In this document: positions 1,697-64,000 of the stretch, piece after piece | How the letters are laid out: each line of letters begins with the position of its first letter | Position numbering within the stretch: the first letter of the stretch is position 1 | Source of the DNA: Escherichia phage FL38 | Length of the DNA: 64,000 bases | Direction: 5' to 3' (one strand) | Sequence record: PP400784 | Translations under genes and position numbers: made by a program | The notes under the pieces: generated by a model | Database searches by the model: none | What the model saw: only the letters and a program-made list of their open reading frames with translations | What the model was told of the DNA's origin: nothing

Positions 1697-4600
1697 ATGG
1701 CAGATTTTTCTCAACATTTCAAGGCCACATTTGGCTTTGACGCTGGTAATGAAAAGGTCGTCAATGTAGCATTGGCTGATAAGAATGTCAACACCGATGC
1801 GATCAACGTTGAATTTTTCAATTACCATAATGGTATTACTCAGTATGACACAACTCGCGGTTATGATCAATACGGAACTACAATCTATCAAAACCGTCCG
1901 TATTATGCAAAAGAAGATATCACAAAACCAGCAGGTGATTTTGACCCGACTAAATGGCAAGCACTGCGCACGGACCCACGTTGGGATTATATTGCAGCAA
2001 CTTCCGGTGATACTCCTTTACAGTCTGGTGATTATATCGCAGCAGATGGTCAATTTGCAAACTTGACTTTCTCTATGCCAACTAAGCCAGCAGAGGGAGA
2101 CACTATAACAGTAAAAGATATCGGTGGCAAGTGTGGTGTTAACGAATTATCGTTCTTGAGTACAGGACATGAGTTTTACCATAACGGTAATGTGTATAAC
2201 CGAAAATGGTATTGCACTACCCCGTATGCAATGAACTATTTCATCTTTGTTCGTAATCGTTGGCATGTTTATCAGACAGGAACAGAGCCACGCGGTGTGT
2301 ACGCACAGCCAGCGATTGATGCTATTCAAATGCAGAATGGTGATCAGGTATTTCGTCGTAGTTCGTTGGGTAATATTACCTTAGTGCTTCCTAAGTTTGC
2401 CAACAATGGCGACATGATCCAGACTACAGACCTTGACGGATTAACCGCAACCAACCACGTTACGGTTAAAGTTCATGAGCACGCAGAAGAACAATCAATT
2501 GGCACGTCCGGTCTAAAAGAGATTATCGGTAAGCGTAGCGGTCATGGTGTATTCATCTTTGACAAGACGGAAAACTTATGGCGTTTGTGGGATGGTGATC
2601 AGTCTGTTCGTCTTAAACCGATCATCGATGACACTCGCTTGCAACCTAATAGCTATGTTGCTGTATTTGGTGATCGTGATGTTACTCTGACGCTGCCGAC
2701 CAATATCGAGCCGGGTGATCGTATTCAAGTTTCTATGCAGTATATGAACGGAAACCAGAATTGCCGTATTATCACCGCCACAGAGGATACAAAAATCCTT
2801 ATGCAGAAAAACATGGTTCAGTTTCCTAAGCGTAGCGAGTACCCATTCAATGGGACCGATACATGGACGGGAGTATCTGAATTGTCTTTCAACGCTGCAA
2901 ATGATTATGTACCTTATCTGGAGTTCTCTTATTCAGAAGGTGATGATGGTAAGAAATACTGGTTGGTGGCACATCCTCACCCGATTGTAGAACGAGTAGA
3001 TCCGACTCGTAAAGATCGTGTTGGTGTAATTGCACTGGCTACCCAAACTGAAACGAATAAAAACCATGAAGAGAATCCTAGCGACGAAGTTGCAGTAACA
3101 CCAAAAATGCTGGCTAATAAAACCGCCAACGAAACTCGACGCGGTATTGCTCGCATTGCGACTCAAGCGGAAACGCATCAAGATACTGGTTCCAACTTCC
3201 TGGATGATGTTATCGTTACGCCTAAAAAGTTAAATGACTGTGTTGCTACCGAAGCCCGTCGTGGTGTGATGGAAATTGCAACCCAGCACGAAACCAATGA
3301 AGGTTTAGACGATACCCGCGCTATTACTCCTAAGAAATTAGAAGAACGTCGCGCTTCCGAAGATCTCGCTGGTATTGCTGAAATTGTTCAGGCTGGCGGC
3401 AGTGCTGCCGCTCGACGTGGCGAAGCTGGTACAGGGATCTATAACATCAATGACCATGCTAAAATTGTTACGCCAAAAAACATCAACGAAGTCAAGGCGA
3501 CCGAAACTTCCCGTGGTGTTGGCTATCTGGCAACTGACGCGGAAGTGCAAGGGGCTACAGAATCAACCCCGCAAGATGCTTTACTCATCACGACTCGCAC
3601 GCTAACGAAACGTACTGCTACCGAATCGCGCACTGGTATCGCTGAAATTGCAACTCAGGAAGAAACAAACTTAGGTCAAAGTGATAACCATATCATCACG
3701 CCTAAAAAGTTGCATACTCGCCGCGCAACGGAAACTTTACACGGTTTAGCAGAAATTGCAACTCAGCCGGAGTTTGACGCAGGTCGTGACGATTCTCGCA
3801 TTTCTACCCCATTGAAGATTAAAACCTTCTTTGAGAATGCACAGCGTTTGAAAGTAGATCCGACTCAGGGGCTTAACCTTACTGGTGATTTGTGGCAAGG
3901 TATCATGATCAGCGGTCTGGATGCAACCGAAGACACAAAAGGTGTCGCTAAAGTTGCTACTACTCAGCTTACTGACGCTGGTCAAGATGATACTACAATC
4001 ATCACGCCTAAAAAGCTGCAAGGCAAAAAGGCCACCGAAGGTAAAGAAGGCATTATCCGAGTTGGTACTCAAGCCGAAACCGTGGCTGGTATTATGGACA
4101 ATGTAGCAATTTCTCCGAAGAACTTCAAATATGTTGTTCAGACAGAGGATACATGGAAAGCAACCGAAGCGCGTCGTGGCTTCTTGAAAGTTGCTACTCA
4201 GGAAAACTGTTTTGTTGGTGATAATCTGCAAGGTTCTACTCAAGAACTAGGAAACTACCAGCATGACGGAATTGCTGTTACTCCGAAAGGATTAAACTAC
4301 GCACTTGCTAATTTCTTACCTAAGATGGCAACCGCTCAGAATAGTTTGAAATTGGGTAACGTAGAGGCCGCTAAATGGGCGCGTAGAGACATTGACCAGA
4401 CCATAGAGAGCAATTACACGTTTAATAAAAAAGTTAACGTGAAGGGCGATTTAGAGTGCTTAAAATCAGGTTCCTTTGAAACTCTGTCTGTGACTAAGAA
4501 CTCGACCGATGTTCCGAGTAATGGTCATCTGGTGTTGGGTGAGCGTGGAGTTGACGGTCACACCGGAATTACTCTGCATGGCACAACCGCATCGGAAGGC

Positions 4601-5437
4601 ATGAAAAACTCTTGGTCTATTATCGTTGGTGGTACTGGAACAGCGCAAGTTGTTGATAGTGATGCTATCGCTTTCGGTAAAATCAATGATGGTGGAGTCG
4701 TTGAGCATTACGCCTTTGCTATGAAACACAATGGCGACGCGACAGCATATCGAGACTTTATTGCAGGTCGTAACCTGTATGCGAAACAAGGCGGTTTATA
4801 CATTGTTGACCAGTCTAATCCGGCAATGACTCGTTCCCCAGATGGTATGCTGAATATCGGTCACGGTGGAAGTGTTAACATCAAGGCAGGGCATCAAACG
4901 TTAACTACAGAGATCGCCGGACAGAAGTATCAGATCGTACATGCAGGAAACGCTGACGAAGTTCTTAACCGTCAGTTTGTTAAGAATGCTGGCGATACAA
5001 TGGTCGGTAAGCTGACTATGGATAATGCGCCTATTGTTTCTGTTAAGCATGAAGCTAGCGCGGCAACCGCTCCGGCAATCGGTAACATCGGTTTCTGGAA
5101 TATGCGAGTTACTACCCAGAACATCAAAGAAACTTATCCAGAGAAGAAAAACGGTACTCTGATGCAATGGGGTACTGACGCGGACGGGCTTACCCAGCTT
5201 TGGTCCCCTGATGGTACTCATAAACATTATATCCGTTCCGGTACTGGTGGTCAATGGACCGCATGGGGTGAAATTTACACCAAACAGAACAAGCCTACCG
5301 CTCAGGAAATTGGGGCAGTGGTTGCCGAAGGTGGTTTGATGAACTCTATGACGGTTCGTGATTGGATCAAAGTTGGTAATGTTAAAATCATCGCCAATAA
5401 TCTGACTCGTACCGTAGACTTTATCTGGGAAGACTAA
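1697..5437 (+). CDS. 34: long tail fibre proximal subunit gp34
   Basis: 1246 aa; position after rnh as in T4; internal tandem ATE..RG.AEIATQ..ITPKKL fibre repeats; strong SD AAAGGAG. Confidence 0.9.
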   Translation: MADFSQHFKATFGFDAGNEKVVNVALADKNVNTDAINVEFFNYHNGITQYDTTRGYDQYGTTIYQNRPYYAKEDITKPAGDFDPTKWQALRTDPRWDYIAATSGDTPLQSGDYIAADGQFANLTFSMPTKPAEGDTITVKDIGGKCGVNELSFLSTGHEFYHNGNVYNRKWYCTTPYAMNYFIFVRNRWHVYQTGTEPRGVYAQPAIDAIQMQNGDQVFRRSSLGNITLVLPKFANNGDMIQTTDLDGLTATNHVTVKVHEHAEEQSIGTSGLKEIIGKRSGHGVFIFDKTENLWRLWDGDQSVRLKPIIDDTRLQPNSYVAVFGDRDVTLTLPTNIEPGDRIQVSMQYMNGNQNCRIITATEDTKILMQKNMVQFPKRSEYPFNGTDTWTGVSELSFNAANDYVPYLEFSYSEGDDGKKYWLVAHPHPIVERVDPTRKDRVGVIALATQTETNKNHEENPSDEVAVTPKMLANKTANETRRGIARIATQAETHQDTGSNFLDDVIVTPKKLNDCVATEARRGVMEIATQHETNEGLDDTRAITPKKLEERRASEDLAGIAEIVQAGGSAAARRGEAGTGIYNINDHAKIVTPKNINEVKATETSRGVGYLATDAEVQGATESTPQDALLITTRTLTKRTATESRTGIAEIATQEETNLGQSDNHIITPKKLHTRRATETLHGLAEIATQPEFDAGRDDSRISTPLKIKTFFENAQRLKVDPTQGLNLTGDLWQGIMISGLDATEDTKGVAKVATTQLTDAGQDDTTIITPKKLQGKKATEGKEGIIRVGTQAETVAGIMDNVAISPKNFKYVVQTEDTWKATEARRGFLKVATQENCFVGDNLQGSTQELGNYQHDGIAVTPKGLNYALANFLPKMATAQNSLKLGNVEAAKWARRDIDQTIESNYTFNKKVNVKGDLECLKSGSFETLSVTKNSTDVPSNGHLVLGERGVDGHTGITLHGTTASEGMKNSWSIIVGGTGTAQVVDSDAIAFGKINDGGVVEHYAFAMKHNGDATAYRDFIAGRNLYAKQGGLYIVDQSNPAMTRSPDGMLNIGHGGSVNIKAGHQTLTTEIAGQKYQIVHAGNADEVLNRQFVKNAGDTMVGKLTMDNAPIVSVKHEASAATAPAIGNIGFWNMRVTTQNIKETYPEKKNGTLMQWGTDADGLTQLWSPDGTHKHYIRSGTGGQWTAWGEIYTKQNKPTAQEIGAVVAEGGLMNSMTVRDWIKVGNVKIIANNLTRTVDFIWED
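3010..4300 (+). repeat. in-frame tandem ~40-aa tail-fibre repeats within gp34 (about 9 copies)
   Basis: Repeated ...TPKKL....ATE.RRG.AEIATQ.E... units seen in the translation. Confidence 0.6.
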
Positions 5438-5442
5438 TTAAA

Positions 5443-5458
5443 GGGGGCGAAAGCCCCC
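5443..5458 (+). other. GC stem-loop GGGGGC-GAAA-GCCCCC between genes 34 and 35
   Basis: Perfect 6-bp stem with GNRA tetraloop GAAA; no U-tract, so not a classical terminator. Confidence 0.4.
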
Positions 5459-5470
5459 TATGGGGTTATT

Positions 5471-6610
5471 ATGACACAAGATATAGAATTACGCAATACT
5501 GGAATTAGGTTTGCGCATTTCGACGAAGACTCTGCGACATTTACCAGCATTTCAGAAAATAACTCTGTGATGTATAAGCTGGAAGTGCGCGGATCTAATG
5601 CGGATTCTACCAAACCAGCAAGGATTAGATTTAATGGAGTGGAGATCGTTGGCACTGGCTATGAAAATGGCCTAAATTTTAAAGTTCTTACTCCAACTGG
5701 ACAACTACACGAAGAAAAGGTATTCTATGGTCGCGGTGCTGTTTTGGCAATGCGTGATTATCTTTCTTTGCTGAAAGGTGACTATATCATTGCGATGGCA
5801 ACGCATGGAGAATTGTTTGCAGATCCGATCAGTGATGGTGTATTCTCTAAGCTGGGATCTGTATCATTCCCGAATCACATTTTGCTACAGCAAATGCCTC
5901 GTGTATCCTATGCAGCAATTTATTCTACTAAAATGGGTAAAATTGTGTGCGAAGGGATGCAAGCAACTCACGGGGAAGGACAAGATTCATCTATACAAAT
6001 TGAGAAAGTCTATGATACTATAGATGATCTTGCTATAACAGGAACACCACAACGATTTTTAGATTATCCGGTTGAGTATGTTAGCGAAGATTCCGAACAT
6101 TTCGAGCTAATACAATGGCCTCGTGATGAGACCAGCGCCCCACTTGAGGATTTTAACATAAAGGCAGGTGACAAACTATCAATATCCTTTGAATTGTTCC
6201 GTGATAGTGCCGCAGCCGCAGCCAACGTAACAGCGCGTTTCTATCACAACTACTTCACCGATGGACAATATCAAACTGGTGTTCGATACAATGCCAGCAA
6301 AAAAGACCAATGGGAAAAGTTTGAAGCCGTCTATACCGTACCGGAAGGAGTTGATAGTGTAGTAACTGGTTGTATCAGATATCCAACCAACTCCAATGAA
6401 GGTATTGTTAAAATTAGAAACATACTAATAACGCCGATCAGTGGAGTCGTCAAAACTACTGGTCCTACTTCATTTGGTGTTAATGGTGTTAGAACAACTC
6501 ATATTCAGGATAACGGTGATTTTACTAACCCTGTAATGAGTCTTCTTAAACTACCCAGAGATAATAAACACATCACATCCAACAACTTTAAAGAGTTCGA
6601 TGTTGATTAA
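5471..6610 (+). CDS. 35: long tail fibre hinge/connector gp35
   Basis: 379 aa (T4 gp35 is 372 aa), between 34 and 36. Confidence 0.75.
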   Translation: MTQDIELRNTGIRFAHFDEDSATFTSISENNSVMYKLEVRGSNADSTKPARIRFNGVEIVGTGYENGLNFKVLTPTGQLHEEKVFYGRGAVLAMRDYLSLLKGDYIIAMATHGELFADPISDGVFSKLGSVSFPNHILLQQMPRVSYAAIYSTKMGKIVCEGMQATHGEGQDSSIQIEKVYDTIDDLAITGTPQRFLDYPVEYVSEDSEHFELIQWPRDETSAPLEDFNIKAGDKLSISFELFRDSAAAAANVTARFYHNYFTDGQYQTGVRYNASKKDQWEKFEAVYTVPEGVDSVVTGCIRYPTNSNEGIVKIRNILITPISGVVKTTGPTSFGVNGVRTTHIQDNGDFTNPVMSLLKLPRDNKHITSNNFKEFDVD

Positions 6611-6622
6611 CATTTTTTAACA

Positions 6623-6652
6623 AGCCGATCCATGTGGTCGGCTTTATTTTTA
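6623..6652 (+). terminator. intrinsic terminator after gene 35
   Basis: AGCCGA-(9 nt)-TCGGCT stem followed by TTTATTTTTAT. Confidence 0.6.
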
Positions 6653-6773
6653 TACAGTTGGTTAAAATGTAACCAAAACGAAGAAAGATCTTTAGAATAA
6701 TAGAAAATTTGTTTCGGTTAAAAATTAGTCAGTGCCTACGGCACGTCGCGAAGCGATATTTTTGTTAACATTC

Positions 6774-6781
6774 TATAAATA
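6774..6781 (+). promoter_or_regulatory. T4-type late promoter motif TATAAATA upstream of gene 36
   Basis: Exact TATAAATA ~35 nt upstream of gp36 ATG. Confidence 0.5.
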
Positions 6782-6815
6782 CTCGGAACTATAACTAATT
6801 TTTTGAGGTTACTTT

Positions 6816-8306
6816 ATGGCAGATTTGAAATATGGATCTACTGTAGGTGGATCTCCCATTTGGACGCAAGGAAACTTGACGATCCAGCCAGCGGGGGATC
6901 AGCTTTTCTACAAAGGTCATAAAATCTATACCGCTTTTGATAGACCTTCGGCTACCGATTTTGATGCTGTTAGTGCATCCGAAGGTGGCACATTTCAAAA
7001 GCAAGTTCATTTCGAGGAAGGTTTAAGCGTAGGTAGCGCATCGGCTGGAGAAACCAAAAAGAATGGTATCTTTAAAGGTCAGAGCGACGCTGCTAATTTT
7101 GACGGCGTAAGCTGGGGTTTGCATTCATGGAAGTCAATCGGCTTTGTTAATGCCCGTGATGGCGTTATTATGGCGTATATTGACACCACAACGGGCGAAT
7201 TTAAGTCTAAAGGGACTATCGAAGGGACAACCATTAAAGACACAGGTCAACGCGTCTATAGCCCTGTTAATAAACCAACGAATAATGATTTAGATTTGGT
7301 GTCTCGTCGCGGTGATACCCTCACAGGAACATATAATTTAAACACTGTCACTGTTAAACTATCGGTTGATTCGAAATTAATTGCAAGGGAACGTGATTTA
7401 ATTAATTTTGATGCGACTAAGATCTATTATGGTAACGTTCTTGACACGTTGGTCTTCCGAAGTAAAGATGAGCCTACCATTTTTGTTAATGACAGAGAAG
7501 GTCGTTTTTATCACACCAACAATAAACCAACTAAAGCCGATGTTGGACTAGGCAATGTCACCAATGATGCACAGGTTAAACGTGCTGGTGATATTATGGA
7601 AGGTAACTTGCAAGCGCCTAGAATGTTGGCGACAAACGATCCTGCTGGTCCTAATGAATTGGTTCGTTTGAGCTACTTTGAGAGAAAATCAATGGTAGCA
7701 AATCCAACCATCATTGGAAACGTTGATTGGAACACTCTTATTAATCGCGGTATCTATCGTGTGGAAAATGCTGGATCAGGTACTAATAAACCGTCTGATA
7801 GCTATTATAACGGCGTTTTGATGGTATATCGCCCAGAAGATGCTGTTGGTACTCGTCGAATTGTTCAGGTGTATTATCCTGAATCTATTGACCATCCGAT
7901 GTGCTGGCGTTCGTGTTCTAATGAATCATGGACTGCATGGAACTATGTAGATCACCGTAAATTGGCTGATATTCTCTATGTTAACGTCACTGGCGATACC
8001 ATGACAGGACCGTTAACTGTTCCGGCTGCAAACGGTGTTAGAACAGCTAAAACTAACTATAACGGGGATAACTGTTATGCGGCGTTAAGCGGTGCTGATG
8101 GTACTGCTATGATTCACCGCATTAGTGATATTAAAGGGACCGAAAAGCTGGGGATCACCCACGACTCAAAGGTCGTGTTTTTCCGTTCTCGAAACAATAC
8201 TCAAACCGTGGACCGCTATCAGCTTTATCATGAAGGTAATAAACCTACTCCGGCTGATGTTGGAGCGGTTCCACTTAATGCGGTGATTGATTTTGGTACT
8301 TTCTAA
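6816..8306 (+). CDS. 36: long tail fibre distal subunit gp36 (enlarged, 496 aa)
   Basis: N-terminus MADLKYGSTVGGSPIWTQGN matches the T4 gp36 N-terminus; position between 35 and 37. Confidence 0.75.
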   Translation: MADLKYGSTVGGSPIWTQGNLTIQPAGDQLFYKGHKIYTAFDRPSATDFDAVSASEGGTFQKQVHFEEGLSVGSASAGETKKNGIFKGQSDAANFDGVSWGLHSWKSIGFVNARDGVIMAYIDTTTGEFKSKGTIEGTTIKDTGQRVYSPVNKPTNNDLDLVSRRGDTLTGTYNLNTVTVKLSVDSKLIARERDLINFDATKIYYGNVLDTLVFRSKDEPTIFVNDREGRFYHTNNKPTKADVGLGNVTNDAQVKRAGDIMEGNLQAPRMLATNDPAGPNELVRLSYFERKSMVANPTIIGNVDWNTLINRGIYRVENAGSGTNKPSDSYYNGVLMVYRPEDAVGTRRIVQVYYPESIDHPMCWRSCSNESWTAWNYVDHRKLADILYVNVTGDTMTGPLTVPAANGVRTAKTNYNGDNCYAALSGADGTAMIHRISDIKGTEKLGITHDSKVVFFRSRNNTQTVDRYQLYHEGNKPTPADVGAVPLNAVIDFGTF

Positions 8307-8310
8307 TTTT

Positions 8311-8336
8311 AGCGGGGATTATCTCCCCGCTTTTCT
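8311..8336 (+). terminator. stem-loop/terminator after gene 36
   Basis: AGCGGGGA-TTATC-TCCCCGCT followed by TTTTCT. Confidence 0.5.
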
Positions 8337-8376
8337 AAATAATATTATTCTAATAACCGTTTAAGGATTTTATAAA

Positions 8377-11166
8377 ATGGCAGATTTAAGCAGAATCCAA
8401 TTTAAACGCACTAGCACTAAAGGTCGTAAACCTGATGCTAGTACGATGAATCCGGGGGAATTGGCAATCAACCTTGCGGATCAATATCTTCTTACTAAAA
8501 ATGATTCCGGTGCTATTATCAATTTAAGTTGTCCTCCTGTTTATGACCGCGATGTTACAATGGCGGGTAAGGTTAAAGGTAATAATTATATCTTAAGTAA
8601 AACCGCTAACTATCTGGAAGATCAGACCGCACGAGATCTTAATTACTTTGGTGCTTTCCGAACTAATGGACAAGATGGTCTTTTAGATCTAACTCTTAAT
8701 GTTCCTCATTCTGCTGGCATTAATCATGGTCGAGGATTTACTTTCCGTTATGCGACTGGCGGATCTCGTGTTGAAACCTATGGGTATAATGCACAGGGAC
8801 AAAAAGCATTTAGCTATAAAATGTATCACGAAGGTGATAAACCAACTCCAGGAGAATTGAACGTCTATAGCAAACAAGAAATTGACCGGATGTTTGTTAA
8901 GAACGTTAAAATGGTTGTTCCTTCTGGTGGTACAAACCGTGGTTATTTTAAAATTGCATCCGCAATGATCCCGCAGAGTGGTCGGATGGCGTTTCTGCGA
9001 ATCTATGGTGGTAATGGATATAATGTAAACTCATATGACCAAGTTGATTTTCTTGAAATTGTTATTCGTAGTGGTAATAATAACCCTAAAGGCGTTAGTA
9101 TTGCTGCATATCGTCGAAATTCTTTGAACGTCCATGAAGTATTTGCAATTAATACTTCCGGTGATAGCTATGACATTTATGTTAACTATGGTCGTTACAC
9201 TGATAACGTTATTGTAGAGTTTGGAAAAACTGTTGACGTCGCATTGACTGTTCATGATGTTCCTGAATTTTCGGCGACTAAACCAGAAACCGGAACTAAA
9301 TTTGATGCTCGTGTTATTACGATGTTCAACACCGAAAACAAAGCCGGAACATTGATGTTTGATAATAACAATCAGTTAACCTATGATATTGTTAGCCTTA
9401 GCAATGGTCCTGATGATGTTAGAAATTATCTGCGTAAATTCCGAAGTAAAGCGGGTGAAATGATTTGGCATGAAACCGTTCAGGGTGCTGTATATCGTCT
9501 TGCTACTGGAACTACTGATTCTACGGAAGTTCTTAGAGTTGATTCTAACAGTGCTCTCCCGGGTAGCTATAAAGGATATGTAATTACTGGTAAAATGGAA
9601 TTGCACGGTAGCGGTAGTGCGATGAATTTACACCGCCAGACTGGTCAAGCTGCATATATGGCGTGGTGGGATCGTCGTGATGGTAAAAACCAACGTAGTG
9701 GTTATATCGGCCATGCGGATGGTACTACTGATGGTTTTGTGTGGCGTAATGATGTTGGTGCGAACTCATTTGATTTGGAAAGTAGTGGACAAGTAAATTT
9801 GACTACAGGAAAAACAAAAATTGTATATACCAACGGACAATATTATTCCGCTAACTCTGATGCATTCCGTATGATTTACGGCAATTATGGCGCATTCTGG
9901 CGTAATGACGGCACTAAAGTTTATCTTCTTTCTACTGCCGAAAATGATCGTTTTGGTGGATGGAACGGCAACCGACCATTCATTTACGATTTGACTTCCG
10001 GTAACGTTCAATTAGGCGGTGACGGTAACGAAGCTGCATTAACGTTAGAACGTGCAAGCAAAGCCGCTCGTTTTACGGGTGATGTTTATGTAGAAAAAGG
10101 TTTCCTTCATTTCTCTAGTGGACGATTAGGATCTCGTGATTTCTTTAAAATCAACCATTGGGGTGATAGCAATAACGGTCGTGATAACATTTTGCAGTTT
10201 GAAGACAATAGCGGTGCACACTTCACAACTGAACGTAAAATGGCAACCGGTGAAATTACTGCGCGATTTAAAGGATTTGTGCGTGTAGAATCTGGCGAAA
10301 TTACATTCCATGCTAACCGTGGTTCTTCTTCGCAATTTAGTCTCAATACATGGGGTAATGAATCACGAAAACAAGTTTTTGAATGTAAGGATGCAACAAG
10401 TTATCATTGGTATACCGAACGTACTGCGGGTGGAACTGGTCCGGTTAAGTTCTCTGTTGCAGGTTCTTTCTATAGCGGAAGCGATGCTAACGTAGGCGGT
10501 AGTCTGAATTTTGGTAATGCTATTCAACGCGGCGCTAGCGTCATTACTATAGATTCTGGTTCTGCGGGTGCTGGTTCTTTTGCATCTCAACATGATGATA
10601 ACGTCAAAGCACCTATTTTCCAACGTTTAGACCGTGGTGATGCGTCTACATATGTTCCTTTGATCAAGCAACGTTATGTTCAAGGTGCAGTAACATTCTC
10701 GTTGGGTATGCTTCTTAATGAAGGTTCATGGCGAGTTCATGTTAAAGGTTCTGGTGTTGAATCTAATACTACCTTCTATAAAAACGGCGATTTCCAAGCT
10801 GGACGCAATGGTAACTTTAACGACGTTTACATTCGCTCTGATGCTCGCCTTAAAATCAACAAGGAAGAGTATAAGGAGAATGCCACTGATAAAGTTAATC
10901 GCTTGACGGTATACACCTATGACAAGGTTAAATCTTTAACCGACCGTACTGTCATTGCTCATGAAGTTGGTATTATTGCTCAGGATCTTGAAAAAGAATT
11001 ACCGGAAGCAGTAACAACTTCTAACATCGGCGATCCCGATAAGCCAGAAGAGATCTTAACAATTTCTAACTCTGCTGTCAACGCTCTTTTAATTAAGGCG
11101 TTTCAGGAAATGAGCGAAGAATTGAATGCCGTTAAAGCTGAACTAGCGGAACTTAAAAAGAATTAA
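8377..11166 (+). CDS. 37: long tail fibre distal subunit gp37 (receptor-binding fibre) with C-terminal intramolecular chaperone domain
   Basis: 929 aa; N-terminus MADLSRIQFKRTSTKGRKPDAS..GELAINL and internal AGSFASQ..DASTYVPLIKQRYVQG match T4 gp37. Confidence 0.9.
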   Translation: MADLSRIQFKRTSTKGRKPDASTMNPGELAINLADQYLLTKNDSGAIINLSCPPVYDRDVTMAGKVKGNNYILSKTANYLEDQTARDLNYFGAFRTNGQDGLLDLTLNVPHSAGINHGRGFTFRYATGGSRVETYGYNAQGQKAFSYKMYHEGDKPTPGELNVYSKQEIDRMFVKNVKMVVPSGGTNRGYFKIASAMIPQSGRMAFLRIYGGNGYNVNSYDQVDFLEIVIRSGNNNPKGVSIAAYRRNSLNVHEVFAINTSGDSYDIYVNYGRYTDNVIVEFGKTVDVALTVHDVPEFSATKPETGTKFDARVITMFNTENKAGTLMFDNNNQLTYDIVSLSNGPDDVRNYLRKFRSKAGEMIWHETVQGAVYRLATGTTDSTEVLRVDSNSALPGSYKGYVITGKMELHGSGSAMNLHRQTGQAAYMAWWDRRDGKNQRSGYIGHADGTTDGFVWRNDVGANSFDLESSGQVNLTTGKTKIVYTNGQYYSANSDAFRMIYGNYGAFWRNDGTKVYLLSTAENDRFGGWNGNRPFIYDLTSGNVQLGGDGNEAALTLERASKAARFTGDVYVEKGFLHFSSGRLGSRDFFKINHWGDSNNGRDNILQFEDNSGAHFTTERKMATGEITARFKGFVRVESGEITFHANRGSSSQFSLNTWGNESRKQVFECKDATSYHWYTERTAGGTGPVKFSVAGSFYSGSDANVGGSLNFGNAIQRGASVITIDSGSAGAGSFASQHDDNVKAPIFQRLDRGDASTYVPLIKQRYVQGAVTFSLGMLLNEGSWRVHVKGSGVESNTTFYKNGDFQAGRNGNFNDVYIRSDARLKINKEEYKENATDKVNRLTVYTYDKVKSLTDRTVIAHEVGIIAQDLEKELPEAVTTSNIGDPDKPEEILTISNSAVNALLIKAFQEMSEELNAVKAELAELKKN
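10837..11166 (+). other. C-terminal intramolecular chaperone (peptidase S74-like) domain of gp37
   Basis: SDARLKINKEEY ... GIIAQDLEKELPEAV ... coiled-coil end; matches the SDxRLK autoproteolytic chaperone signature of phage fibres/endosialidases. Confidence 0.65.
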
Positions 11167-11206
11167 GGAAACTCCCAGGGAAGGGAACTACTAAGGAGAA
11201 ACGGCT

Positions 11207-11446
11207 ATGGTCTATAATATCGTCATTGGTGCTTTGTCTAATTTCGGAATGAAATTATTGTCAAAGTTAATTAGTGAAAAGATGCTCACTAAAATTTTCT
11301 TCTATTGCGCTCGTCGTCTTGCGGATTATACCAATACGCCAATTGATGATCGTTTTGTGGAAGAACTTTATAAGGAGTTTAATAAAGATCAGTCAGAAGA
11401 TAGTAACGAGCAAGATAAACCTAGTGATAGTCAACTACCTAAATAA
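11207..11446 (+). CDS. hypothetical small protein (79 aa), N-terminal hydrophobic segment, acidic C-terminus
   Basis: SD AAGGAGAA; occupies the T4 gp38 position but is unrelated in size. Confidence 0.5.
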   Translation: MVYNIVIGALSNFGMKLLSKLISEKMLTKIFFYCARRLADYTNTPIDDRFVEELYKEFNKDQSEDSNEQDKPSDSQLPK

Positions 11447-11479
11447 GAGTACACTGTCATAGTTATCTTAGGGCATTAT

Positions 11480-12136
11480 ATGCAAGTTTCTGAAAAAGGG
11501 AAAGACTTTGCTATCTCAAATGTCCTGCGCGCTATTTTCACAACTAAAAGCACGGAGTTGCTCGTACTTCGTGTTTTTGCTGCCGTCGTGTTGTCCATAT
11601 TAGCATTTGTCGTTTATAGTAAAAACGAGTTATTTGCGCTTTATAAAGAGACTCGTTATGAGACTTATGCTCACATTCTCCAGGTAGAGAAAGACCGCAA
11701 TTTTGATAATGCAGCACAGGAGCAGTTACAGATAGTTCATGTGTCGGCTGATGCCGATTTTTCTGCTGTTTTTAGTTTTCGTCCGAAAAACCTAAACTAT
11801 TTTGTTGATTTGGTGGCATATGAAGGAAAGCTACCGCATACAATCGATGAAAAAAATTTAGGTGGATTCCCTATCAATAAAACGAGTGAAGAATATCGTA
11901 GGCATCTTTTAGGTAAATCCTATTTTACCGATAAAGATTTCCAGTATATTCCATCAAGAGAAAAGAAATTAGAGAATATCGATATAGGTTTCATGTATTC
12001 TTGTCCTATATTCAATCTCGATAATGTCTATTCTGGTAGTATCGCCATTTCATGGAAGAATAAACCGGATATTGACATTGAGAATTTAGATACTCTTTGC
12101 AATCAATCTGCCAGAATCCTCGGAAGGATTAGATAA
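11480..12136 (+). CDS. t: holin
   Basis: 218 aa; LEQLQIVHVSADADFSAVFSFRPKNLNYFVDLVAYEGKLP and C-terminal ARILGR match T4 holin T. Confidence 0.9.
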   Translation: MQVSEKGKDFAISNVLRAIFTTKSTELLVLRVFAAVVLSILAFVVYSKNELFALYKETRYETYAHILQVEKDRNFDNAAQEQLQIVHVSADADFSAVFSFRPKNLNYFVDLVAYEGKLPHTIDEKNLGGFPINKTSEEYRRHLLGKSYFTDKDFQYIPSREKKLENIDIGFMYSCPIFNLDNVYSGSIAISWKNKPDIDIENLDTLCNQSARILGRIR

Positions 12137-14351: not shown

Positions 14352-15110
14352 TTACTTGCAAACGTATTGATCTACATCAATTGCGCCACCGAATGTAGGG
14401 TGACGTTTTTCAAATCGAATAGTTCCGTCGTTTGGTTCGAAAACGGAGTATTCATATAGATCTTTCTTGCCAACATTCTTATAAAACCCGCCTTTAGTCA
14501 TAACGGTTTCTTGTACGTTTGCTTTGTGTACGTTGTATTCGTCAATGTATACAAAATCAACCATCTTCCCATTTTTAATGGTTACTTTAAGATCTCCTGG
14601 CTGGTTTCCATATTTTGCATACAGTGGAGCTTCTTTAATTTTGGTGGAAATTCCATCTTTAATACTCCACTCATAACGAACGGTGCATTGATAGGTAAAA
14701 GTTTCGACCTTCGGTTCTTCCACCATTTTTTCTTCCTGTTTCGGTTGTTCTTCTTCAACCTTCGCAGAAGTCTCTGAATCGCTTTCTGACGCGGTTTCTT
14801 CTTTAGGTAATACATTCATCAAGTTTTGGATTTGAGCGTTGTATACAGCCTCCAGTGGCTGAATCTGCCCGATATTGATCATTGTATCACGAACAGTTTT
14901 ATTCCAGTTGAGTTGCTCTTGTTTAAGAGACGGATCAATCTTAACAGCCTTAACATATACTTCATGAAGTTTCGAATCCAGTGCGGAGATTGACTCATTA
15001 GCACAAATAAACTTCTCTGATTTGGTAGTGGCTTTAGCGCAATCAAAGGACGCAGCATTAGCACCGAAAGCAGTAGCGGAAAGAACGATAGCAGCGATAA
15101 TGTTTTTCAT
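14352..15110 (-). CDS. secreted protein with LprI/DUF1311-like N-terminal domain (candidate periplasmic lysozyme inhibitor)
   Basis: Signal peptide MKNIIAAIVLSATAFGANA; then SFDCAKATTKSEKFICANESISALDSKLHEVY, typical of DUF1311; Glu-rich linker; Cys-bracketed C-terminal domain. Confidence 0.55.
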   Translation of the reverse strand: MKNIIAAIVLSATAFGANAASFDCAKATTKSEKFICANESISALDSKLHEVYVKAVKIDPSLKQEQLNWNKTVRDTMINIGQIQPLEAVYNAQIQNLMNVLPKEETASESDSETSAKVEEEQPKQEEKMVEEPKVETFTYQCTVRYEWSIKDGISTKIKEAPLYAKYGNQPGDLKVTIKNGKMVDFVYIDEYNVHKANVQETVMTKGGFYKNVGKKDLYEYSVFEPNDGTIRFEKRHPTFGGAIDVDQYVCK

Positions 15111-39668: not shown

Positions 39669-40031
39669 TTATCGCCCGATCTGATATTTCTCGATCAGCG
39701 TCCACTCTTCTTTCTGTTTGAAAGACAATACACGGAAATTATTAACTTCGGTAGTTTCAAAATCACTATCAATCAGGGTACACAGATTCCACTGCGCCAG
39801 AAGTTTTGCAATGTTATTACGGCGTAATTCATCTTCCCACGTCATTTTAACACTACGACCATCTAATTTCAACAACTCCTTGAAATGAACGATGTAATAG
39901 CGCCCTTTCTTCTGGAGAATATGACAAGACTGATACAGTGTCTTGTCTCGATTGTTGGCAATGCCGCAGCGGGTTAAAGTTTCCTTAATTTTAAGGAAGT
40001 TTTCAGGACTAATCAAATTAATTTCAATCAT
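39669..40031 (-). CDS. regA: translational repressor RegA
   Basis: 120 aa; MIEI.L..PE.FLK.KETLTR.GIANN.DK.LYQSCHILQKKG.YYIVHFKE matches T4 RegA. Confidence 0.92.
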   Translation of the reverse strand: MIEINLISPENFLKIKETLTRCGIANNRDKTLYQSCHILQKKGRYYIVHFKELLKLDGRSVKMTWEDELRRNNIAKLLAQWNLCTLIDSDFETTEVNNFRVLSFKQKEEWTLIEKYQIGR

Positions 40032-40032
40032 T

Positions 40033-40611
40033 TTACCACCTTTCTATAATCTTTTTAAGTCGTTTCCTTTCTGTCTGATTCTTAGTAACACCCGCCAAAA
40101 GTTCATCGGTCGCATACGGTTTAATGTGCTTCAATAACTTGTCCATATATCCCTTTTCATTAGCCAAATCGAGATAAAACCGGGCGTCATCCATATTTAC
40201 ACAATATGCTTTCGCCACTGCCATTAAAACCAATTTTTGGTCCAATTCTTCTGTTAGTTTAGCCCATTTACCGTATCGTTTCCCCTTAGAAATACTCTGT
40301 AAGAGATAATCAAAATGCATTTGATCTGGGAGGCCATGACCGATTAAATTCATCACATACGCGCTATATAGGCAATCTGCGTGCTGGGAAAGAGCGGTGT
40401 TAATCCATCTCTGGTTATATGCAGAATTGTTTCCCACATTAACGCGCTGTTTATCTAAGGTGATATGATCCATCAGAGCAAATAATGCATTGTCGGTTTT
40501 CTCGGTGAATGTATCCGCTAATTCAGACACCTTTTCCCAATCACGAGAGCGCCATGCAATTTCATGCTCGTTTAATTGTGTATCATCTTCACCGAAAAAT
40601 TGACCTAACAT
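40033..40611 (-). CDS. 62: clamp loader small subunit
   Basis: 192 aa; QLNEH..AW.S.DW, YVMNLIG.GL, GKRYGKWAKL match T4 gp62. Confidence 0.88.
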   Translation of the reverse strand: MLGQFFGEDDTQLNEHEIAWRSRDWEKVSELADTFTEKTDNALFALMDHITLDKQRVNVGNNSAYNQRWINTALSQHADCLYSAYVMNLIGHGLPDQMHFDYLLQSISKGKRYGKWAKLTEELDQKLVLMAVAKAYCVNMDDARFYLDLANEKGYMDKLLKHIKPYATDELLAGVTKNQTERKRLKKIIERW

Positions 40612-41600
40612 TATACGAACTCCAATTCAACCATTAATTGCATTAACAAAAAGACAATGTGAATCTCTTTATCAGCCGCGTGCGCAAACATCTGATTATT
40701 TTCACCGATAATCTCAGTGAGACGAATAATAGAAGCTGGCTTAACTTGAGTATACAACTCATTATAAAGTTTCTTGACAAATTGAGCGTATGTATTGGTA
40801 TATCGCGGCGCAAGTTTACGCACATTAGCAAACTGTTTAGTTTTAAGTGCTTCCACCACATCGGTTACTTCGGTATTGCTACTTTCGATAACCATGCTCA
40901 ATACGCCAGCATCAATTTTACCATGTTTAGCGTAGCGGTCCAAAAGTTTCATTACGCGTCGGAAGTCTGGGAAGTTCTGTTTAACCAGTTCCGCTAATAC
41001 GCGCATTTCTTCTACTGGCACACCTTCTTTATCAAGAATTGCTTTACACCGGACGATCATTTCTTTCATCATGCGAAGCTGATCATCTTTAGTCGGAGAT
41101 CCAAACGTTATGGGGTCAAATCGAGATCGTAACGCTGGGATAATACCTTCTAGATCGTTTGCTGTGATAATGAATGTCACATTGTTTGAGTATGCCTCAG
41201 AGAAACTACGCAAGTGTCTTTGAGCGTCAGCCAACCCCGCTCGGTCATACTCATCGATAATAACAACTTTGCCTTTTTCTCTTTTTTCTTCATCGAGTGA
41301 TACACTCTGCGCAAAGCGTGTAATCTCATCGCGGATAAAATCAATCTTACAATCTGCGCCGTTAACAAACAGATAATCAACACCCACATCTTCGCAAAGC
41401 GCCTTAGCAACGGTTGTTTTACCAGTACCCGGCGATGGGCTATGCAGGATCATAGAAGGGATTCGGCCTTGCTTAACAATCTGCGCGAAGATCTTTTTAT
41501 CTGCTTCCGGCAGAATACATTCAGAAATTGATTTCGGACGGTATTTCTGTTCCCACTGAAACTCATTTTCATTAACACTCAGCATATAATCACCTCTCAC
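40611..41600 (-). CDS. 44: clamp loader large subunit (AAA+ ATPase)
   Basis: 329 aa; Walker A SPSPGTGKTT; T4 gp44 is 319 aa. Confidence 0.9.
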   Translation of the reverse strand: MRGDYMLSVNENEFQWEQKYRPKSISECILPEADKKIFAQIVKQGRIPSMILHSPSPGTGKTTVAKALCEDVGVDYLFVNGADCKIDFIRDEITRFAQSVSLDEEKREKGKVVIIDEYDRAGLADAQRHLRSFSEAYSNNVTFIITANDLEGIIPALRSRFDPITFGSPTKDDQLRMMKEMIVRCKAILDKEGVPVEEMRVLAELVKQNFPDFRRVMKLLDRYAKHGKIDAGVLSMVIESSNTEVTDVVEALKTKQFANVRKLAPRYTNTYAQFVKKLYNELYTQVKPASIIRLTEIIGENNQMFAHAADKEIHIVFLLMQLMVELEFV

Positions 41601-45302: not shown

Positions 45303-45895
45303 TTTAGTTTATGTTCCTCTAAAAATTCTTCAATTTCACCTTGCAGGTCTTCCGCTTGCTGTTCCAGAATATCGCGAAATTCACCTACAGTCAAGCGGTA
45401 ATCACATTTCACCAGTCGATGCGGGAGAATATACCCTTTATACATTGTCTCTGACGCTTCCAGGAATACCCCACTATGCATGACAGAGATCCAACCTGTT
45501 AACGTCAATGGAGTATTCGGAAAATAATACTTGCTGGATTGTTTCCACTGTACGAAAGCACCATATACAATCGGATTATATTCACCAACCACACTCTTAA
45601 TAATGGATTCTACTTTGTCTTTTACAAAGTCGCCAATGTCCATAGTTACCATCAAATCCTGTGGATGAATCACTTTAAGGTAACGACGATAACCGTCATC
45701 ATACCACATCTTAACCACTGGCGGACCCCACATTTTAGCAATACTCGCTTTCAGATAGCCATAGATCGGATTCTTGCAATGTGATTGTTTTAGTGTGTAT
45801 GTGTGCACCAATTTAATAAAATGTTCCATTACCAACAAATCAGAATCAGCCGCGACCATAGTCGTATTCATAATATGTTCCTCGTTCAATCTCAT
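45299..45895 (-). CDS. hypothetical protein (198 aa; start uncertain)
   Basis: ORF; overlaps the upstream gene by 50 nt from the track start. Confidence 0.5.
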   Translation of the reverse strand: MRLNEEHIMNTTMVAADSDLLVMEHFIKLVHTYTLKQSHCKNPIYGYLKASIAKMWGPPVVKMWYDDGYRRYLKVIHPQDLMVTMDIGDFVKDKVESIIKSVVGEYNPIVYGAFVQWKQSSKYYFPNTPLTLTGWISVMHSGVFLEASETMYKGYILPHRLVKCDYRLTVGEFRDILEQQAEDLQGEIEEFLEEHKLK

Positions 45896-46163
45896 ATTGT
45901 TTCAGGTCTTCTAAAAGTTCATCCACTGCTTGTTTCAGTACATGACGCAGCGTAAAGTAATAGCTTTCATCAAATTCTATTTCCGCGCGAGGAATAGAGC
46001 GAAACTTACACTTAACGGTAGTATCAGTGAGTCGCTTTTCGACCATCATCCGAACTTCTTCATGCTCTTTGGAATACCATACATCAACGGAGATCCCCTT
46101 ACGTCGAGCAAACATAGGCAATGCCTCATTAAATTCCATTACCTTTTGTGCAAGTGTTTTCAT
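45846..46163 (-). CDS. hypothetical protein (105 aa)
   Basis: ORF. Confidence 0.5.
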   Translation of the reverse strand: MKTLAQKVMEFNEALPMFARRKGISVDVWYSKEHEEVRMMVEKRLTDTTVKCKFRSIPRAEIEFDESYYFTLRHVLKQAVDELLEDLKQYEIERGTYYEYDYGRG

Positions 46164-50857: not shown

Positions 50858-51354
50858 TTCTCAGCCTTTAATCTTTCTAGTTCTTCTTCCAGTTCCTTGA
50901 TCCGTTGGTCACGTTCAAAGTCACGCTGCAACTTAGTGGCGAATACTCGTTTAAACTGATTGTAATCATCGATTTTAAACACTTCTTCTTCGCCATAGCG
51001 ACGCACAGAAACTTCGTAGTTATTGAAGAATTGTTGCATCATTGCTTCGGATGATAGCTCTGCTGATACCACTTTAAAATATTGATCTTCTGTAGGCGAA
51101 AACCAATTACAAGCATAAAGATAAACCTTTTCATTGTCTGGACACTGGTAAGCCTTACCATCGATTTCAATCACAGAAACATATTCAGGTATACTAGATG
51201 AATCAATAGCTAAGACTTTAAACGCACGGTCCCCGATAAACTCGGAGATCACACGATTCGCATCACTGGTTGCAAATGCTTTACGCGCTTGTTCGTTTTT
51301 CCACTGATAGGTCATGCCAACAACAAACATATTACCAACCTCGCTCTTTACCAA
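50854..51354 (-). CDS. repeat-domain family protein (1 domain + helical tail)
   Basis: Shares the ...FKVLAID...IEIDG...WF...DQYFKVV core and coiled-coil tail with neighbours. Confidence 0.55.
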   Translation of the reverse strand: MVKSEVGNMFVVGMTYQWKNEQARKAFATSDANRVISEFIGDRAFKVLAIDSSSIPEYVSVIEIDGKAYQCPDNEKVYLYACNWFSPTEDQYFKVVSAELSSEAMMQQFFNNYEVSVRRYGEEEVFKIDDYNQFKRVFATKLQRDFERDQRIKELEEELERLKAEK

Positions 51355-60208: not shown

Positions 60209-60502
60209 TTAACCATTAATCTTGTTTTTGACTACAAAGGATCGGAACTCATCAAAGCCACCGATATAATCACCATCATAGAAAATCTGCGGCATGGTGG
60301 CAATAACTTCTACCCCTGCGCGATCCTGAATATCGGCAATGATAGAATCAATCTTTACCGGACGACCGTTTTCGTCCACACCATCATTAACCGGAATGTA
60401 GATGTAAGGGATCTTACGCGATTCACAAAGGCGCTTTGCATTCTGGCAATACTTACAGTTGTAACCTTCAAAACCAAAAATTTCTACCATGTTATACCTC
60501 AA
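60209..60502 (-). CDS. nrdC: thioredoxin/glutaredoxin
   Basis: 97 aa; C.YCQNAKRL and TMPQIF.DG..IGGFD match T4 NrdC. Confidence 0.8.
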   Translation of the reverse strand: MRYNMVEIFGFEGYNCKYCQNAKRLCESRKIPYIYIPVNDGVDENGRPVKIDSIIADIQDRAGVEVIATMPQIFYDGDYIGGFDEFRSFVVKNKING

Positions 60503-61311
60503 TCTACGTTAGTTACATAAACTTCTTGTGTATCAGAAGACTTGCCACCTGAACGATCTAGGCAATAGGTCTTATTCAACAGGACGCAGTTTAAATCATT
60601 CCGCTTGATAAAGTCAAGAAGATGATCATTTACCTTTCCCTTATGATGTGTGACATTACTGATACCAAACTGAAAACCACGCGCCATAATAGATTCTACC
60701 CACTGATAGAATTTAATCTCTTCCTCGTCACTCCAGAACTTATTATATTCCGCAGAAGTGATAAGGTACGGCGGGTCCAAATAAACGAAATCACCCGGCA
60801 AGATCTCGATCTCGTCATAACGACCAGACGTAAAACTGATTCGACCGTCTTTGTTTTCTTCCTTAAAATTCAGGACACGCTCTACCGCGTTTTCGTTAAA
60901 AGTCCGGCGACCAAAATTAGCATTAAATTCGCCCTTCCGGTTATGACGGTTAATGTTGCTAAAACTATGCTGAATCAACACAAACAGCGATAGCGGATCT
61001 GGATTCTCGTTATACTTCTTGCGGAATGCCATATAAGAATCTTTATCATCACGAGACAAACCATTTTCGGCAATAATCCTCTTGATCATAAAAACCGGAT
61101 CAGGACACTCATCAATGGCCTTGTAAGCGTCAATTAAGCGGTGATCATAGTCATTAGCCAGCACATCCCCTTCGACGTACAGAGACACGCTCAAGCCACC
61201 ACAAAAGGCATCGACAAAGCGGTTATAGTGCTTAGGGAAATACTTACTAACACCAGGCAATAACTTTTCCTTATTGCCCGTATAGGGAATTAAACCTAAT
61301 GCTTTCTTCAT
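60499..61311 (-). CDS. dam: DNA adenine methyltransferase (N6-A, GATC-type Dam)
   Basis: 270 aa; FVDAFCGGLSVSL and DFVYLDPPYLIT...YNKFWS match T4 Dam. Confidence 0.88.
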   Translation of the reverse strand: MKKALGLIPYTGNKEKLLPGVSKYFPKHYNRFVDAFCGGLSVSLYVEGDVLANDYDHRLIDAYKAIDECPDPVFMIKRIIAENGLSRDDKDSYMAFRKKYNENPDPLSLFVLIQHSFSNINRHNRKGEFNANFGRRTFNENAVERVLNFKEENKDGRISFTSGRYDEIEILPGDFVYLDPPYLITSAEYNKFWSDEEEIKFYQWVESIMARGFQFGISNVTHHKGKVNDHLLDFIKRNDLNCVLLNKTYCLDRSGGKSSDTQEVYVTNVD

Positions 61312-63623: not shown

Positions 63624-63881
63624 TTAGTGAATTAACTCTACACCAAAATGAGGCACAGAGAACGCCTTACAAAACACATATTCATCATGTTTAGGAATCG
63701 CCCCTAACCGCTCTATTTCGCTCGCTAACACTATAAACTGTTTATCTGGTGCATATGCCTTGCGTGCTTCAACAACGCACGGAAAACGCGTTTTAGAGAG
63801 TTCTGGATAGTTTTCCGAATCCAGCAGGACAATGAATACCCTGTTACATTGATTGTAGAATCCTGTTTTTGATTTCATCAA
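63624..63881 (-). CDS. hypothetical protein (85 aa)
   Basis: ORF. Confidence 0.5.
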   Translation of the reverse strand: MMKSKTGFYNQCNRVFIVLLDSENYPELSKTRFPCVVEARKAYAPDKQFIVLASEIERLGAIPKHDEYVFCKAFSVPHFGVELIH

Positions 63882-64000
63882 GTTTTCCTCTCAGTACAAT
63901 TCGTGAAATCTTCCCTTCATGATTTCGTTGGTTCTTGTCTTCACAGTTTACCCATTCAACAAGGTCTTTACCTAACTCGAAAGCCCATTCTCGGTCCTGC

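Follow-up and report, generated by a model that had tools for sequence, protein, structure and literature searches.

The distal tail fibre protein of Escherichia phage FL38 ends in an intramolecular chaperone domain and probably carries a gp38 adhesin encoded at a displaced site

We analysed the long-tail-fibre locus of Escherichia phage FL38 in a 64,000-nucleotide stretch of its genome (record PP400784; hereafter the window) and found that the last 109 residues of gp37, the distal long-tail-fibre subunit, are, by profile and structural-model comparison, an intramolecular chaperone of the Peptidase_S74 type. The fibre built on this protein is very probably the ordinary and already described T2/S16-type fibre of RB49-like phages, in which the chaperone is cut off and a gp38 cap binds the receptor. 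The gp38 gene of this phage is almost certainly not missing but situated about 2 kb past the window edge.

The window comes from a Krischvirus (an RB49-like phage), and its closest record is that of phage kaaroe, with 94% nucleotide identity over gene 37. The product of gene 37 and its parts lie as follows:

8377..11166, plus strand: gp37, distal long-tail-fibre subunit, an ORF of 929 aa
8377..10836, plus strand: predicted mature gp37, aa 1–820, left after release of the chaperone domain (phrog_1699; RB49 gene 37 synteny)
9652..9987, plus strand: Gp34_trimer-like domain inside gp37, aa 426–537 (PF21446, E 3.4e-38, 131 bits)
10819..10836, plus strand: pre-cleavage segment NDVYIR, aa 815–820, where R820 is predicted to become the C-terminal residue of mature gp37 (from conservation)
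10837..10854, plus strand: SDARLK, with the predicted scissile, nucleophilic Ser821 and general-base Lys826 (from invariance and the Ser/Lys(+5) spacing)
10837..11163, plus strand: intramolecular chaperone (Peptidase_S74) domain, aa 821–929 (PF13884), followed by the stop codon at 11164–11166
11068..11160, plus strand: long C-terminal helix of the chaperone domain, aa 898–928, presumed trimeric coiled coil (DSSP on the AF2 model)

The protein matches phrog_1699 (“long tail fiber protein distal subunit”) with E 6.6e-153, and its gene occupies a position syntenic with gene 37 of RB49, to whose product its overall identity is 77–82%, according to the alignment method used; kaaroe gp37 is 87.6% identical to it over the full length. 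The Gp34_trimer-like part retrieves T4 gp34 from the PDB (5nxf and 4uxe, E about 1e-13). Toward the distal end, aa 501–929 are at least 96% identical to kaaroe gp37 and aa 701–929 are 100% identical to it, and aa 601–800 show 96–100% identity to kaaroe and 12–54% to RB49. Judged from these comparisons, the distal shaft module of about aa 601–800 is of the kaaroe/MIZ type, unlike the RB49 type.

The chaperone domain forms the extreme C-terminus of the subunit, the interval 10837..11166 holding its 109 aa and the stop codon. Residues 821–880 match Peptidase_S74 (PF13884) across the entire profile (positions 1–58 of 58). The score of 45.0 bits (E 1.4e-11) clears the gathering cutoff of 22 and far exceeds what chance would give, and the same family is present in 40 of 40 database homologues of gp37. 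The first-pass annotation had proposed a self-cleaving-type chaperone in these approximately 109 residues and had named a profile comparison as the means of checking it; the match to PF13884, the presence of Ser821 and Lys826 and the fold all bear this out. In an AF2 monomer model of aa 701–929, built from a shallow alignment, pLDDT is 78–95 over aa 821–929, and residues 198–228 of the modelled fragment are assigned by DSSP to a helix with pLDDT above 90. Foldseek searches with the modelled chaperone recovered the ICA domain of MyRF (7dc3; E 5e-5, prob 1.0) and the chaperones of the K1F endosialidase (3gw6) and GA-1 (3gud), the latter two with prob 0.94–1.0; the TM-score normalised to the target was 0.53–0.67 for 3gud and 7dc3. 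The K1F endosialidase, the GA-1 neck appendage protein and MyRF (3GW6, 3GUD, 7DC3) share fold and Pfam family with the gp37 chaperone but only 10–21% sequence identity, and their cargo is a tailspike or a transcription factor, not a T-even fibre. Closer to home, the domain is 100% identical to that of kaaroe, about 88–96% identical to that of RB49 and 55–64% identical to those of Krischviruses with an adjacent gp38.

Codon 821 (tct, Ser) begins exactly at nt 10837. S821, D822 and K826 are invariant in the 40 homologues, and since these fall to 27% identity overall, such invariance indicates purifying selection on the catalytic residues; the same set shows no variation at V817 or R820 and at least 90% conservation at N815, D816, Y818 and I819. 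The cut would fall between Arg820 and Ser821: a cleavage motif DVYIR^SDGRLKI has been reported for the T2-like fPS phages (PMC7917993), the DVYIR^SDARLKI of the window aligns with DLNVS^SDRRIKK of S16 (alignment to 6f45_A), and the scissile Ser1264 and Lys1269 of T5 pb1 are spaced just as Ser821 and Lys826 are (PMC4690869). RB49 gp37 is described as bearing a self-cleaving chaperone domain and as being capped by gp38 thereafter (PMC9569957). It is scarcely credible that the C-terminal domain of the FL38 protein is instead a vestige that has lost cleavage and remains part of the virion fibre: the Pfam profile is covered from end to end, the Ser, Asp and Lys residues do not vary, and an uncleaved chaperone would hide the end on which gp38 docks (PMC7917993).

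Among characterised fibres, S16 provides a gp37–gp38 tip (PDB 6F45; Dunne et al. 2018, as summarised in PMC7917993) in which a chaperone of about 110 aa at the gp37 C-terminus cleaves itself off; its removal exposes the gp38 docking surface (PMC7917993). Phmmer aligns residues 72–196 of 6f45_A to aa 802–927 of the window gp37 (E 3.7e-6); upstream of the last 18 or so residues before the cleavage site the two have no detectable similarity, and S16, unlike the window, encodes gp38 directly after gene 37. T5 pb1 (PDB 4UW8; PMC4690869) likewise bears a C-terminal Peptidase_S74-type chaperone with the Ser/Lys(+5) arrangement and a coiled-coil end, but its chaperone, with about 133 aa and long beta-hairpin “tentacles”, is the longer of the two, T5 has no separate adhesin, and PDB sequence searches yielded no pb1 match to the window gp37. 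A distal fibre of the T4 type was considered and rejected. T4 gp37 has a homologous N-terminal part and an equal role in the fibre (phrog_1699), but it forms its own receptor-binding needle tip, is devoid of a chaperone domain and depends for assembly on an unrelated gp38 chaperone (PMC3157838), as well as on gp57A; the T4 tip was not retrieved from the PDB by searches with the whole window gp37 or with its last 229 aa, and the window protein ends in the Peptidase_S74 domain. Both the cleavage motif and the chaperone of the window gp37 are homologous to those of gp37 proteins from gp38-bearing phages, as expected of the T2/T6/S16 type. A gp37 chaperone together with a gp38 cap constitutes the T2/T6/S16 paradigm (PMC9569957; PMC7917993), and with the chaperone on gp37 and gp38 present in relatives, the FL38 fibre would thus follow the T2/S16 paradigm. 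The earlier expectation of host-range determinants unlike the T4/T2 paradigms is not supported, and the comparison with T4 gp38 on which it drew conflates the T4-type assembly chaperone with the T2-type adhesin, although these proteins are unrelated.

The canonical placement of gp38 directly downstream of gene 37, which is inessential to function, is not found in the window. Six-frame tblastn with seven gp38 proteins detected no gp38-like sequence within the 64 kb (best E = 2.2), whereas on the kaaroe locus, used as a positive control, the same seven proteins were matched with E values from 1e-27 to 6.5e-168. Pfam searches of ten unassigned window ORFs (198–342 aa) returned no gp38, and among the seven of these ORFs that were inspected none had a Gly/His-rich gp38-like sequence. 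The initial statement that no gp38 follows gene 37 is accordingly correct for the locus and for the whole window, but its extension to absence from the phage is unsupported, as the site used in relatives lies outside the window, which covers only about 40% of a genome of roughly 164 kb.

Gene 37 is followed, after a gap of only 40 nt from its stop codon, by two further genes:

11207..11446, plus strand: 79-aa ORF (Dc5 of RB49), conserved between the fibre genes and holin t (phrog_402, of unknown function, E 1.1e-19)
11480..12136, plus strand: holin t, closing the fibre gene block on its downstream side (PF11031, E 4.5e-61)

The resulting order 34-35-36-37-Dc5-t is common to the window and RB49, and in gene order, gp37, Dc5 and synteny the window resembles the RB49/Krischvirus fibre locus as described (Desplats 2002; Trojet et al. 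2011, PMC3157838; Efimov et al. 2022, PMC9569957). The Dc5 ORF, which has no Pfam match, differs by one to three residues in RB49, kaaroe, FL15 and G2494 (three in RB49, counting its alternative GTG start). In RB49 the gp38 gene has been reported as displaced, a small ORF occupying the vacated spot (PMC3157838). The first-pass annotation had seen an unrelated 79-aa ORF in the place of gp38, but Dc5 does not take that place: it occurs both where gp38 neighbours gene 37 and where gp38 has been moved away, and in the Krischviruses that keep gp38 beside gene 37 (FL15, G2494, MIZ4 and kvi) it coexists with that arrangement, sitting between gp38 and t. Dc5 as a substitute chaperone or adhesin was rejected, being equally present in those relatives.

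The likely whereabouts of gp38 emerge from the opposite end of the window, where two features anchor the synteny:

60499..61311, minus strand: dam methyltransferase, used as a synteny landmark (PF02086, E 1e-29)
63624..64000, minus strand: right edge of the window, aligning to kaaroe L005 and FL37 L009

RB49 and kaaroe both carry gp38 beyond dam and on the strand of that gene (minus); the distance is about 4.6 kb measured from the far end of dam and about 5.4 kb measured from the near end. The RB49 coordinates are 39922–40734 for dam and 45367–46143 for g38 (RB49p079), so that g38 follows the stop codon of gene 37 at a distance of about 54.7 kb; those of kaaroe, in locus L005, are 4500–5312 for dam and 9944–10729 for gp38 (kaaroe_95). 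Nucleotide 64000 of the window corresponds to position 8003 of kaaroe L005 and to position 8869 of FL37 L009, in which gp38 occupies 6142–6927. The flanking synteny up to the displaced site is common to the window, RB49 and kaaroe, and by this synteny the start of gp38 is expected about 1.94 kb beyond the window's last nucleotide. Such a location agrees with the placement of Krischvirus gp38 about 55 kb downstream of gene 37 (bioRxiv 10.64898/2026.04.02.716166) and with the description of gp38 in RB49 and its relatives as a T2/S16-type adhesin moved away from gene 37 (PMC3157838; PMC9569957). No recorded protein was identical to the window gp37, and an exact 60-nt pattern taken from the window edge matched neither viral nor metagenome contigs; six contigs sharing a 102-aa ORF with the window are only 95–98% identical to it. 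Within the 55 nt upstream of the displaced gp38 of kaaroe and RB49 there is a terminator-like hairpin, and no T4-type late promoter (TATAAATA) was found in the same interval.

The relatives themselves speak for a gp38 in this lineage. The kaaroe and RB49 proteins both match PF05268 (E 1e-70) and PF21721 (E 4e-18); in 41 phage records gp37 shares 55% identity or more with that of the window, and every one of them carries a Krischvirus-type gp38, the 41 being included in the 43 records that have the N-terminal half of this type at 95% identity or more. In FL15 and G2494 the displaced site is empty and gp38 directly follows gene 37, as it also does in MIZ4 and kvi. In one Krischvirus lineage, G37-3, inspection of two sites revealed a PF05268 gene at neither, so gp38 may not be universal in Krischvirus.

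The same observations bear on a fibre that would work independently of gp38, with the gp37 segment just upstream of Ser821 serving as the receptor-binding tip in the manner of T5 pb1, whose receptor is bound by the domain that directly precedes the chaperone (PMC4690869). The lack of gp38 anywhere in the 64-kb window and the case of G37-3 would fit such a fibre, which we nevertheless regard as very improbable. The window stops short of the genus-typical gp38 site; the gp37 of G37-3 is only 49.5% identical to that of the window and is followed by three extra ORFs absent from the window; the records with similar gp37 carry gp38 without exception; and the host-range mutations of RB49 map to gp38 (PMC9569957). 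Moreover, kaaroe has both gp38 and a gp37 tip identical to that of FL38; the proposal that the pre-cleavage region of gp37 is the receptor-binding tip is not supported. That this particular phage has lost gp38 entirely, its exposed gp37 end (aa ~560–820, the kaaroe/MIZ-type module) binding the receptor directly, is exceedingly doubtful; if true, it would represent a T5-pb1-like solution within a T-even fibre.

Another alternative assigns the fibre two determinants, in that gp38 caps it and the exchangeable gp37 module of about aa 560–800 adds a second specificity, for example for O-antigen. It draws on the mosaicism of this module between the kaaroe and RB49 types, against a gp38 N-terminal half that is 98–100% identical across the genus, and on the remark of Efimov et al. 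that recognition of several O-antigens by a small gp38 is counter-intuitive (PMC9569957). Nonetheless, we consider it unlikely: Pfam and PDB sequence searches detected no binding-domain family in gp37 aa 560–820, mosaicism of fibre shafts is common without functional meaning (PMC3157838), and the selected RB49 host-range mutants map specifically to E230/Y231 of gp38 (PMC9569957).

We therefore favour the T2/S16-type fibre, which may be pictured as follows. Three gp37 chains of 929 aa each would be aligned in register and folded by way of their own C-terminal chaperone (aa 821–929). Once the trimer has folded, Ser821, activated by Lys826, would cut the Arg820–Ser821 bond, and the released chaperone would be absent from the virion. 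The new end of gp37 would then offer the docking surface for a single copy of gp38; in the AF2 monomer model residues 701–782 have pLDDT below 50, leaving the pre-chaperone tip uninformative as to this surface. The gp38 protein, comprising a Gp38_N attachment domain and a glycine-rich receptor-binding domain, would be the main determinant of receptor specificity. Its gene would lie about 55 kb downstream of gene 37 on the opposite strand, some 1.9 kb outside the window, and is predicted to be a minus-strand ORF of 258–266 aa spanning roughly 1.9–2.7 kb past the edge, with PF05268 and PF21721 and an N-terminus resembling MAISSGWVGSSAVSETGQRW.

As this arrangement is already known, its significance beyond correct annotation is small. 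The predicted Arg820/Ser821 site could nevertheless be helpful in designing recombinant fibre constructs, and a pipeline or a reader restricted to the fibre locus would wrongly call gp38 absent. Work on RB49-like phages that aims to predict host range or to engineer fibres should take gp38, encoded about 55 kb away from the fibre genes, as the receptor determinant to consider.

The window falls within Krischvirus, the RB49-like phages, by megablast, which returns the gene 37 of Escherichia phage kaaroe as its nearest counterpart (94% nucleotide identity) and no identical record. A T-even long-tail-fibre block spans 1697-12136 (+) and is made up as follows:

Within 1697-12136 (+): ORF in the gene 34 position, 1246 aa, syntenic with RB49 gene 34 and of the same length
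Within 1697-12136 (+): gp35, 379 aa, phrog_1154
6816-8306 (+): gp36-like protein, 496 aa, phrog_16472 and phrog_1425
8377..11166 (+): gp37, the distal subunit, 929 aa, phrog_1699 (E 6.6e-153)
11207..11446 (+): 79-aa ORF, named Dc5 in RB49, phrog_402
11480..12136 (+): holin t, PF11031

The protein in the gp36 position is more than twice as long as T4 gp36 (about 220 aa); it scores 21.4 bits against the Phage_T4_gp36 Pfam model, under the cutoff of 26, and its first ~40-77 aa are matched by N-terminal sequences in several PHROG families of the gp37 type.

The first-pass annotation held that gp37 ends in an SDxRLK intramolecular chaperone and proposed a Peptidase_S74 profile comparison as a check. 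The last 109 aa are indeed such a domain, and the call is real, correctly placed and no chance match, because of the following: The codon for Ser821 starts at nt 10837, in the motif SDARLK, and aa 821-880 give a full-profile match to Pfam Peptidase_S74 (PF13884; 45 bits vs a cutoff of 22, E 1.4e-11). The C-terminal 229 aa of gp37, searched against a database, yielded 40 homologues, each with PF13884; their alignment shows no variation at R820, S821, D822 or K826 and next to none at N815, D816, Y818 and I819. Built from this alignment, the AlphaFold2 model has high confidence at aa 821-929 (pLDDT 78-95), with a long terminal helix at aa 898-928, and Foldseek matches it in the PDB to the MyRF ICA domain 7dc3 (E 5e-5), the K1F endosialidase chaperone 3gw6 and the GA-1 chaperone 3gud (probability 0.94-1.0). 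Finally, the Ser/Lys(+5) pair corresponds to that of T5 pb1, in which Lys1269 activates the scissile Ser1264 (PMC4690869). That the domain persists as a non-cleaving vestige is highly improbable, given the invariance of its catalytic residues.

No gp38, the T2/S16-type adhesin that caps gp37, follows gene 37 in the window, as had been noted: the 79-aa ORF begins only 40 nt after the stop codon, and a search of all frames of the window recovered no gp38-like sequence (best E 2.2; the positive control worked). The extension of this absence to the phage as a whole is contradicted by its relatives. A 2026 preprint (bioRxiv 10.64898/2026.04.02.716166) places gp38 downstream of gp37 in five Krischvirus phages, at a distance of about 55 kb; the displaced genes of RB49 and kaaroe are:

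RB49, 45367-46143 (-): g38 (RB49p079), 258 aa, about 4.6 kb beyond the far end of dam
kaaroe locus L005, 9944-10729 (-): gp38 (kaaroe_95), 261 aa, at the site equivalent to that of RB49 g38

Both are matched by PF05268 GP38 (E about 1e-70) and PF21721 Gp38_N (E about 4e-18). The window carries dam at 60499-61311, and its nt 64000 is the counterpart of position 8003 in the kaaroe locus; therefore, it ends 1.94 kb before the gp38 position. By tblastn, 41 phage records encode a gp37 that shares 55% or more identity with that of the window, and 41/41 fall among the 43 records in which the N-terminal half of the Krischvirus-type gp38 is present at no less than 95% identity. Wherever the distance was computed, 54-56 kb separate gene 37 from gp38, which is encoded on the other strand (54.7 kb in RB49 and kaaroe, 55.3 kb in MIZ6 and TB34). 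Since kaaroe and all these similar-gp37 records possess gp38, the relatives argue strongly that FL38 also encodes it.

The displaced gp38 is a late structural gene among the leftward genes of a variable region. In kaaroe (L005 10730-10783 (-)) and RB49 (locus L004 10145-10198 (-)), the 55-nt spacer preceding it has a terminator-like hairpin (GCCCCTTAATTGGGGCTTTT) within 30 nt upstream of the gene and no TATAAATA late promoter; thus, the route of its transcription is not obvious. Also on the leftward strand, neighbouring ORFs of the window (51332-52156, 57559-58737, 58794-59378 and 59375-59707, all (-)) repeat a ~90-aa module, with KWE[IV]GKTYTWKD...FFREVEE occurring twice in a 274-aa ORF of the group. 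Two of them are annotated in RB49 as "goF mRNA metabolism modulator", and together they look like a locally expanded paralogous family. A further 252-aa ORF (14352-15110 (-); hypothetical protein RB49p262 in RB49) has a signal-peptide-like N-terminus and a borderline match to the LprI lysozyme inhibitor (PF07007, 22.6 bits vs a cutoff of 22).

Among the Krischvirus genomes inspected, gp38 takes one of two locations, the displaced ~55 kb site or the position directly after gene 37. The latter is seen in FL15, G2494, MIZ4 and kvi; of these, FL15 and G2494 were the two inspected at the displaced site, which is empty in both. Because a very different gp37 (27-33% identity in FL15 and G2494) and a T2/T6-like gp38 (47-58% identity in the same two) accompany the adjacent arrangement, these comparisons suggest that the whole gp37-tip/gp38 cassette has been exchanged with other T-even genera. 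The 79-aa ORF had been read as an unrelated occupant of the place of gp38; however, in all four genomes Dc5 sits between gp38 and t, which rules it out as a replacement. It always adjoins holin t on the upstream side and varies by 1-3 residues across Krischvirus (no more than one in FL15 and G2494), as befits a separate conserved gene by sequence comparison. Its N-terminal stretch is hydrophobic or amphipathic (MVYNIVIGALSNFGMKLLSKLI) and its C-terminus acidic and of low complexity.

The most unusual thing seen lies outside the window: G37-3 (MK327941), G2248 (MK327932) and UPWr_E1 (PP418985), only 3/50,697 phage records, have a gp37 with the chaperone domain and, after it, three ORFs of ~100 aa that are paralogous to one another. 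In the Krischvirus G37-3, the one examined in detail (gp37 of 954 aa, PF13884 E 9e-15), the stretches concerned are:

L017 (gene 37 locus) 3011-3307, 3310-3615 and 3615-3917: three paralogous ORFs, then Dc5 and t
L018 4628-5201: second G37-3 stretch

Each ORF starts with M-x-x-W-[VI] and has an internal FDIPNG[YW]; none has a Pfam or PHROG match. No gp38 (PF05268) was found at either inspected site, the displaced site being empty and tblastn of the 5.7-kb gene 37 locus blank. These ORFs may constitute a set of alternative fibre tips or adhesins not described before.

By sequence comparison, the gp37 of the window is a mosaic. Its identity to the gp37 of kaaroe is 100% at aa 701-929, no lower than 96% across aa 501-929 and 30-64% at aa 351-500. 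Identity to the RB49 protein is 86-96% at aa 351-500 and falls to 12-54% at aa 601-800, a region with an additional insertion of about 50 aa in RB49. A strongly matched Gp34_trimer domain lies mid-protein (aa 426-537, nt 9652-9987; PF21446 E 3.4e-38), with PDB matches to T4 gp34 (5nxf and 4uxe, E ~1e-13); thus, a proximal-fibre-subunit module is reused in the distal subunit. An exchangeable module at aa ~600-800, so divergent from RB49 and identical to kaaroe, could add a second binding specificity beside a gp38 whose N-terminal half is invariant genus-wide; this is unlikely, as RB49 host-range mutants map to gp38 (PMC9569957). The earlier proposal of a new host-range logic, with a gp38-independent, T5-like fibre binding the receptor by the gp37 tip, is very improbable: Trojet et al. 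(PMC3157838), Efimov et al. (PMC9569957) and the comparative data on gp38 contradict it.

In S16, the last 113 residues are removed by autocleavage, which "exposes the Gp38 docking surface" (PMC7917993). The cleavage motif of T2-like Yersinia phages, DVYIR^SDGRLKI (PMC7917993), is essentially the same as DVYIR^SDARLKI of the window, with which S16 DLNVS^SDRRIKK aligns (alignment to 6f45_A). By analogy, gp37 would trimerise and fold assisted by its own chaperone domain, which would depart upon a cut at the Arg820-Ser821 bond; gp38 would then dock via its N-terminal attachment domain, which in kaaroe and RB49 has Trp residues (MAISSGW...QRW), and bind the receptor through its glycine-rich and hypervariable loops. 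A chaperone-bearing gp37 has already been described for RB49-like phages. The domain with its residues and fold, as well as the synteny, is observed here; the T2/T6/S16 scheme of a self-chaperoned gp37 would add cleavage, docking and a gp38 cap, and very probably it holds for FL38.
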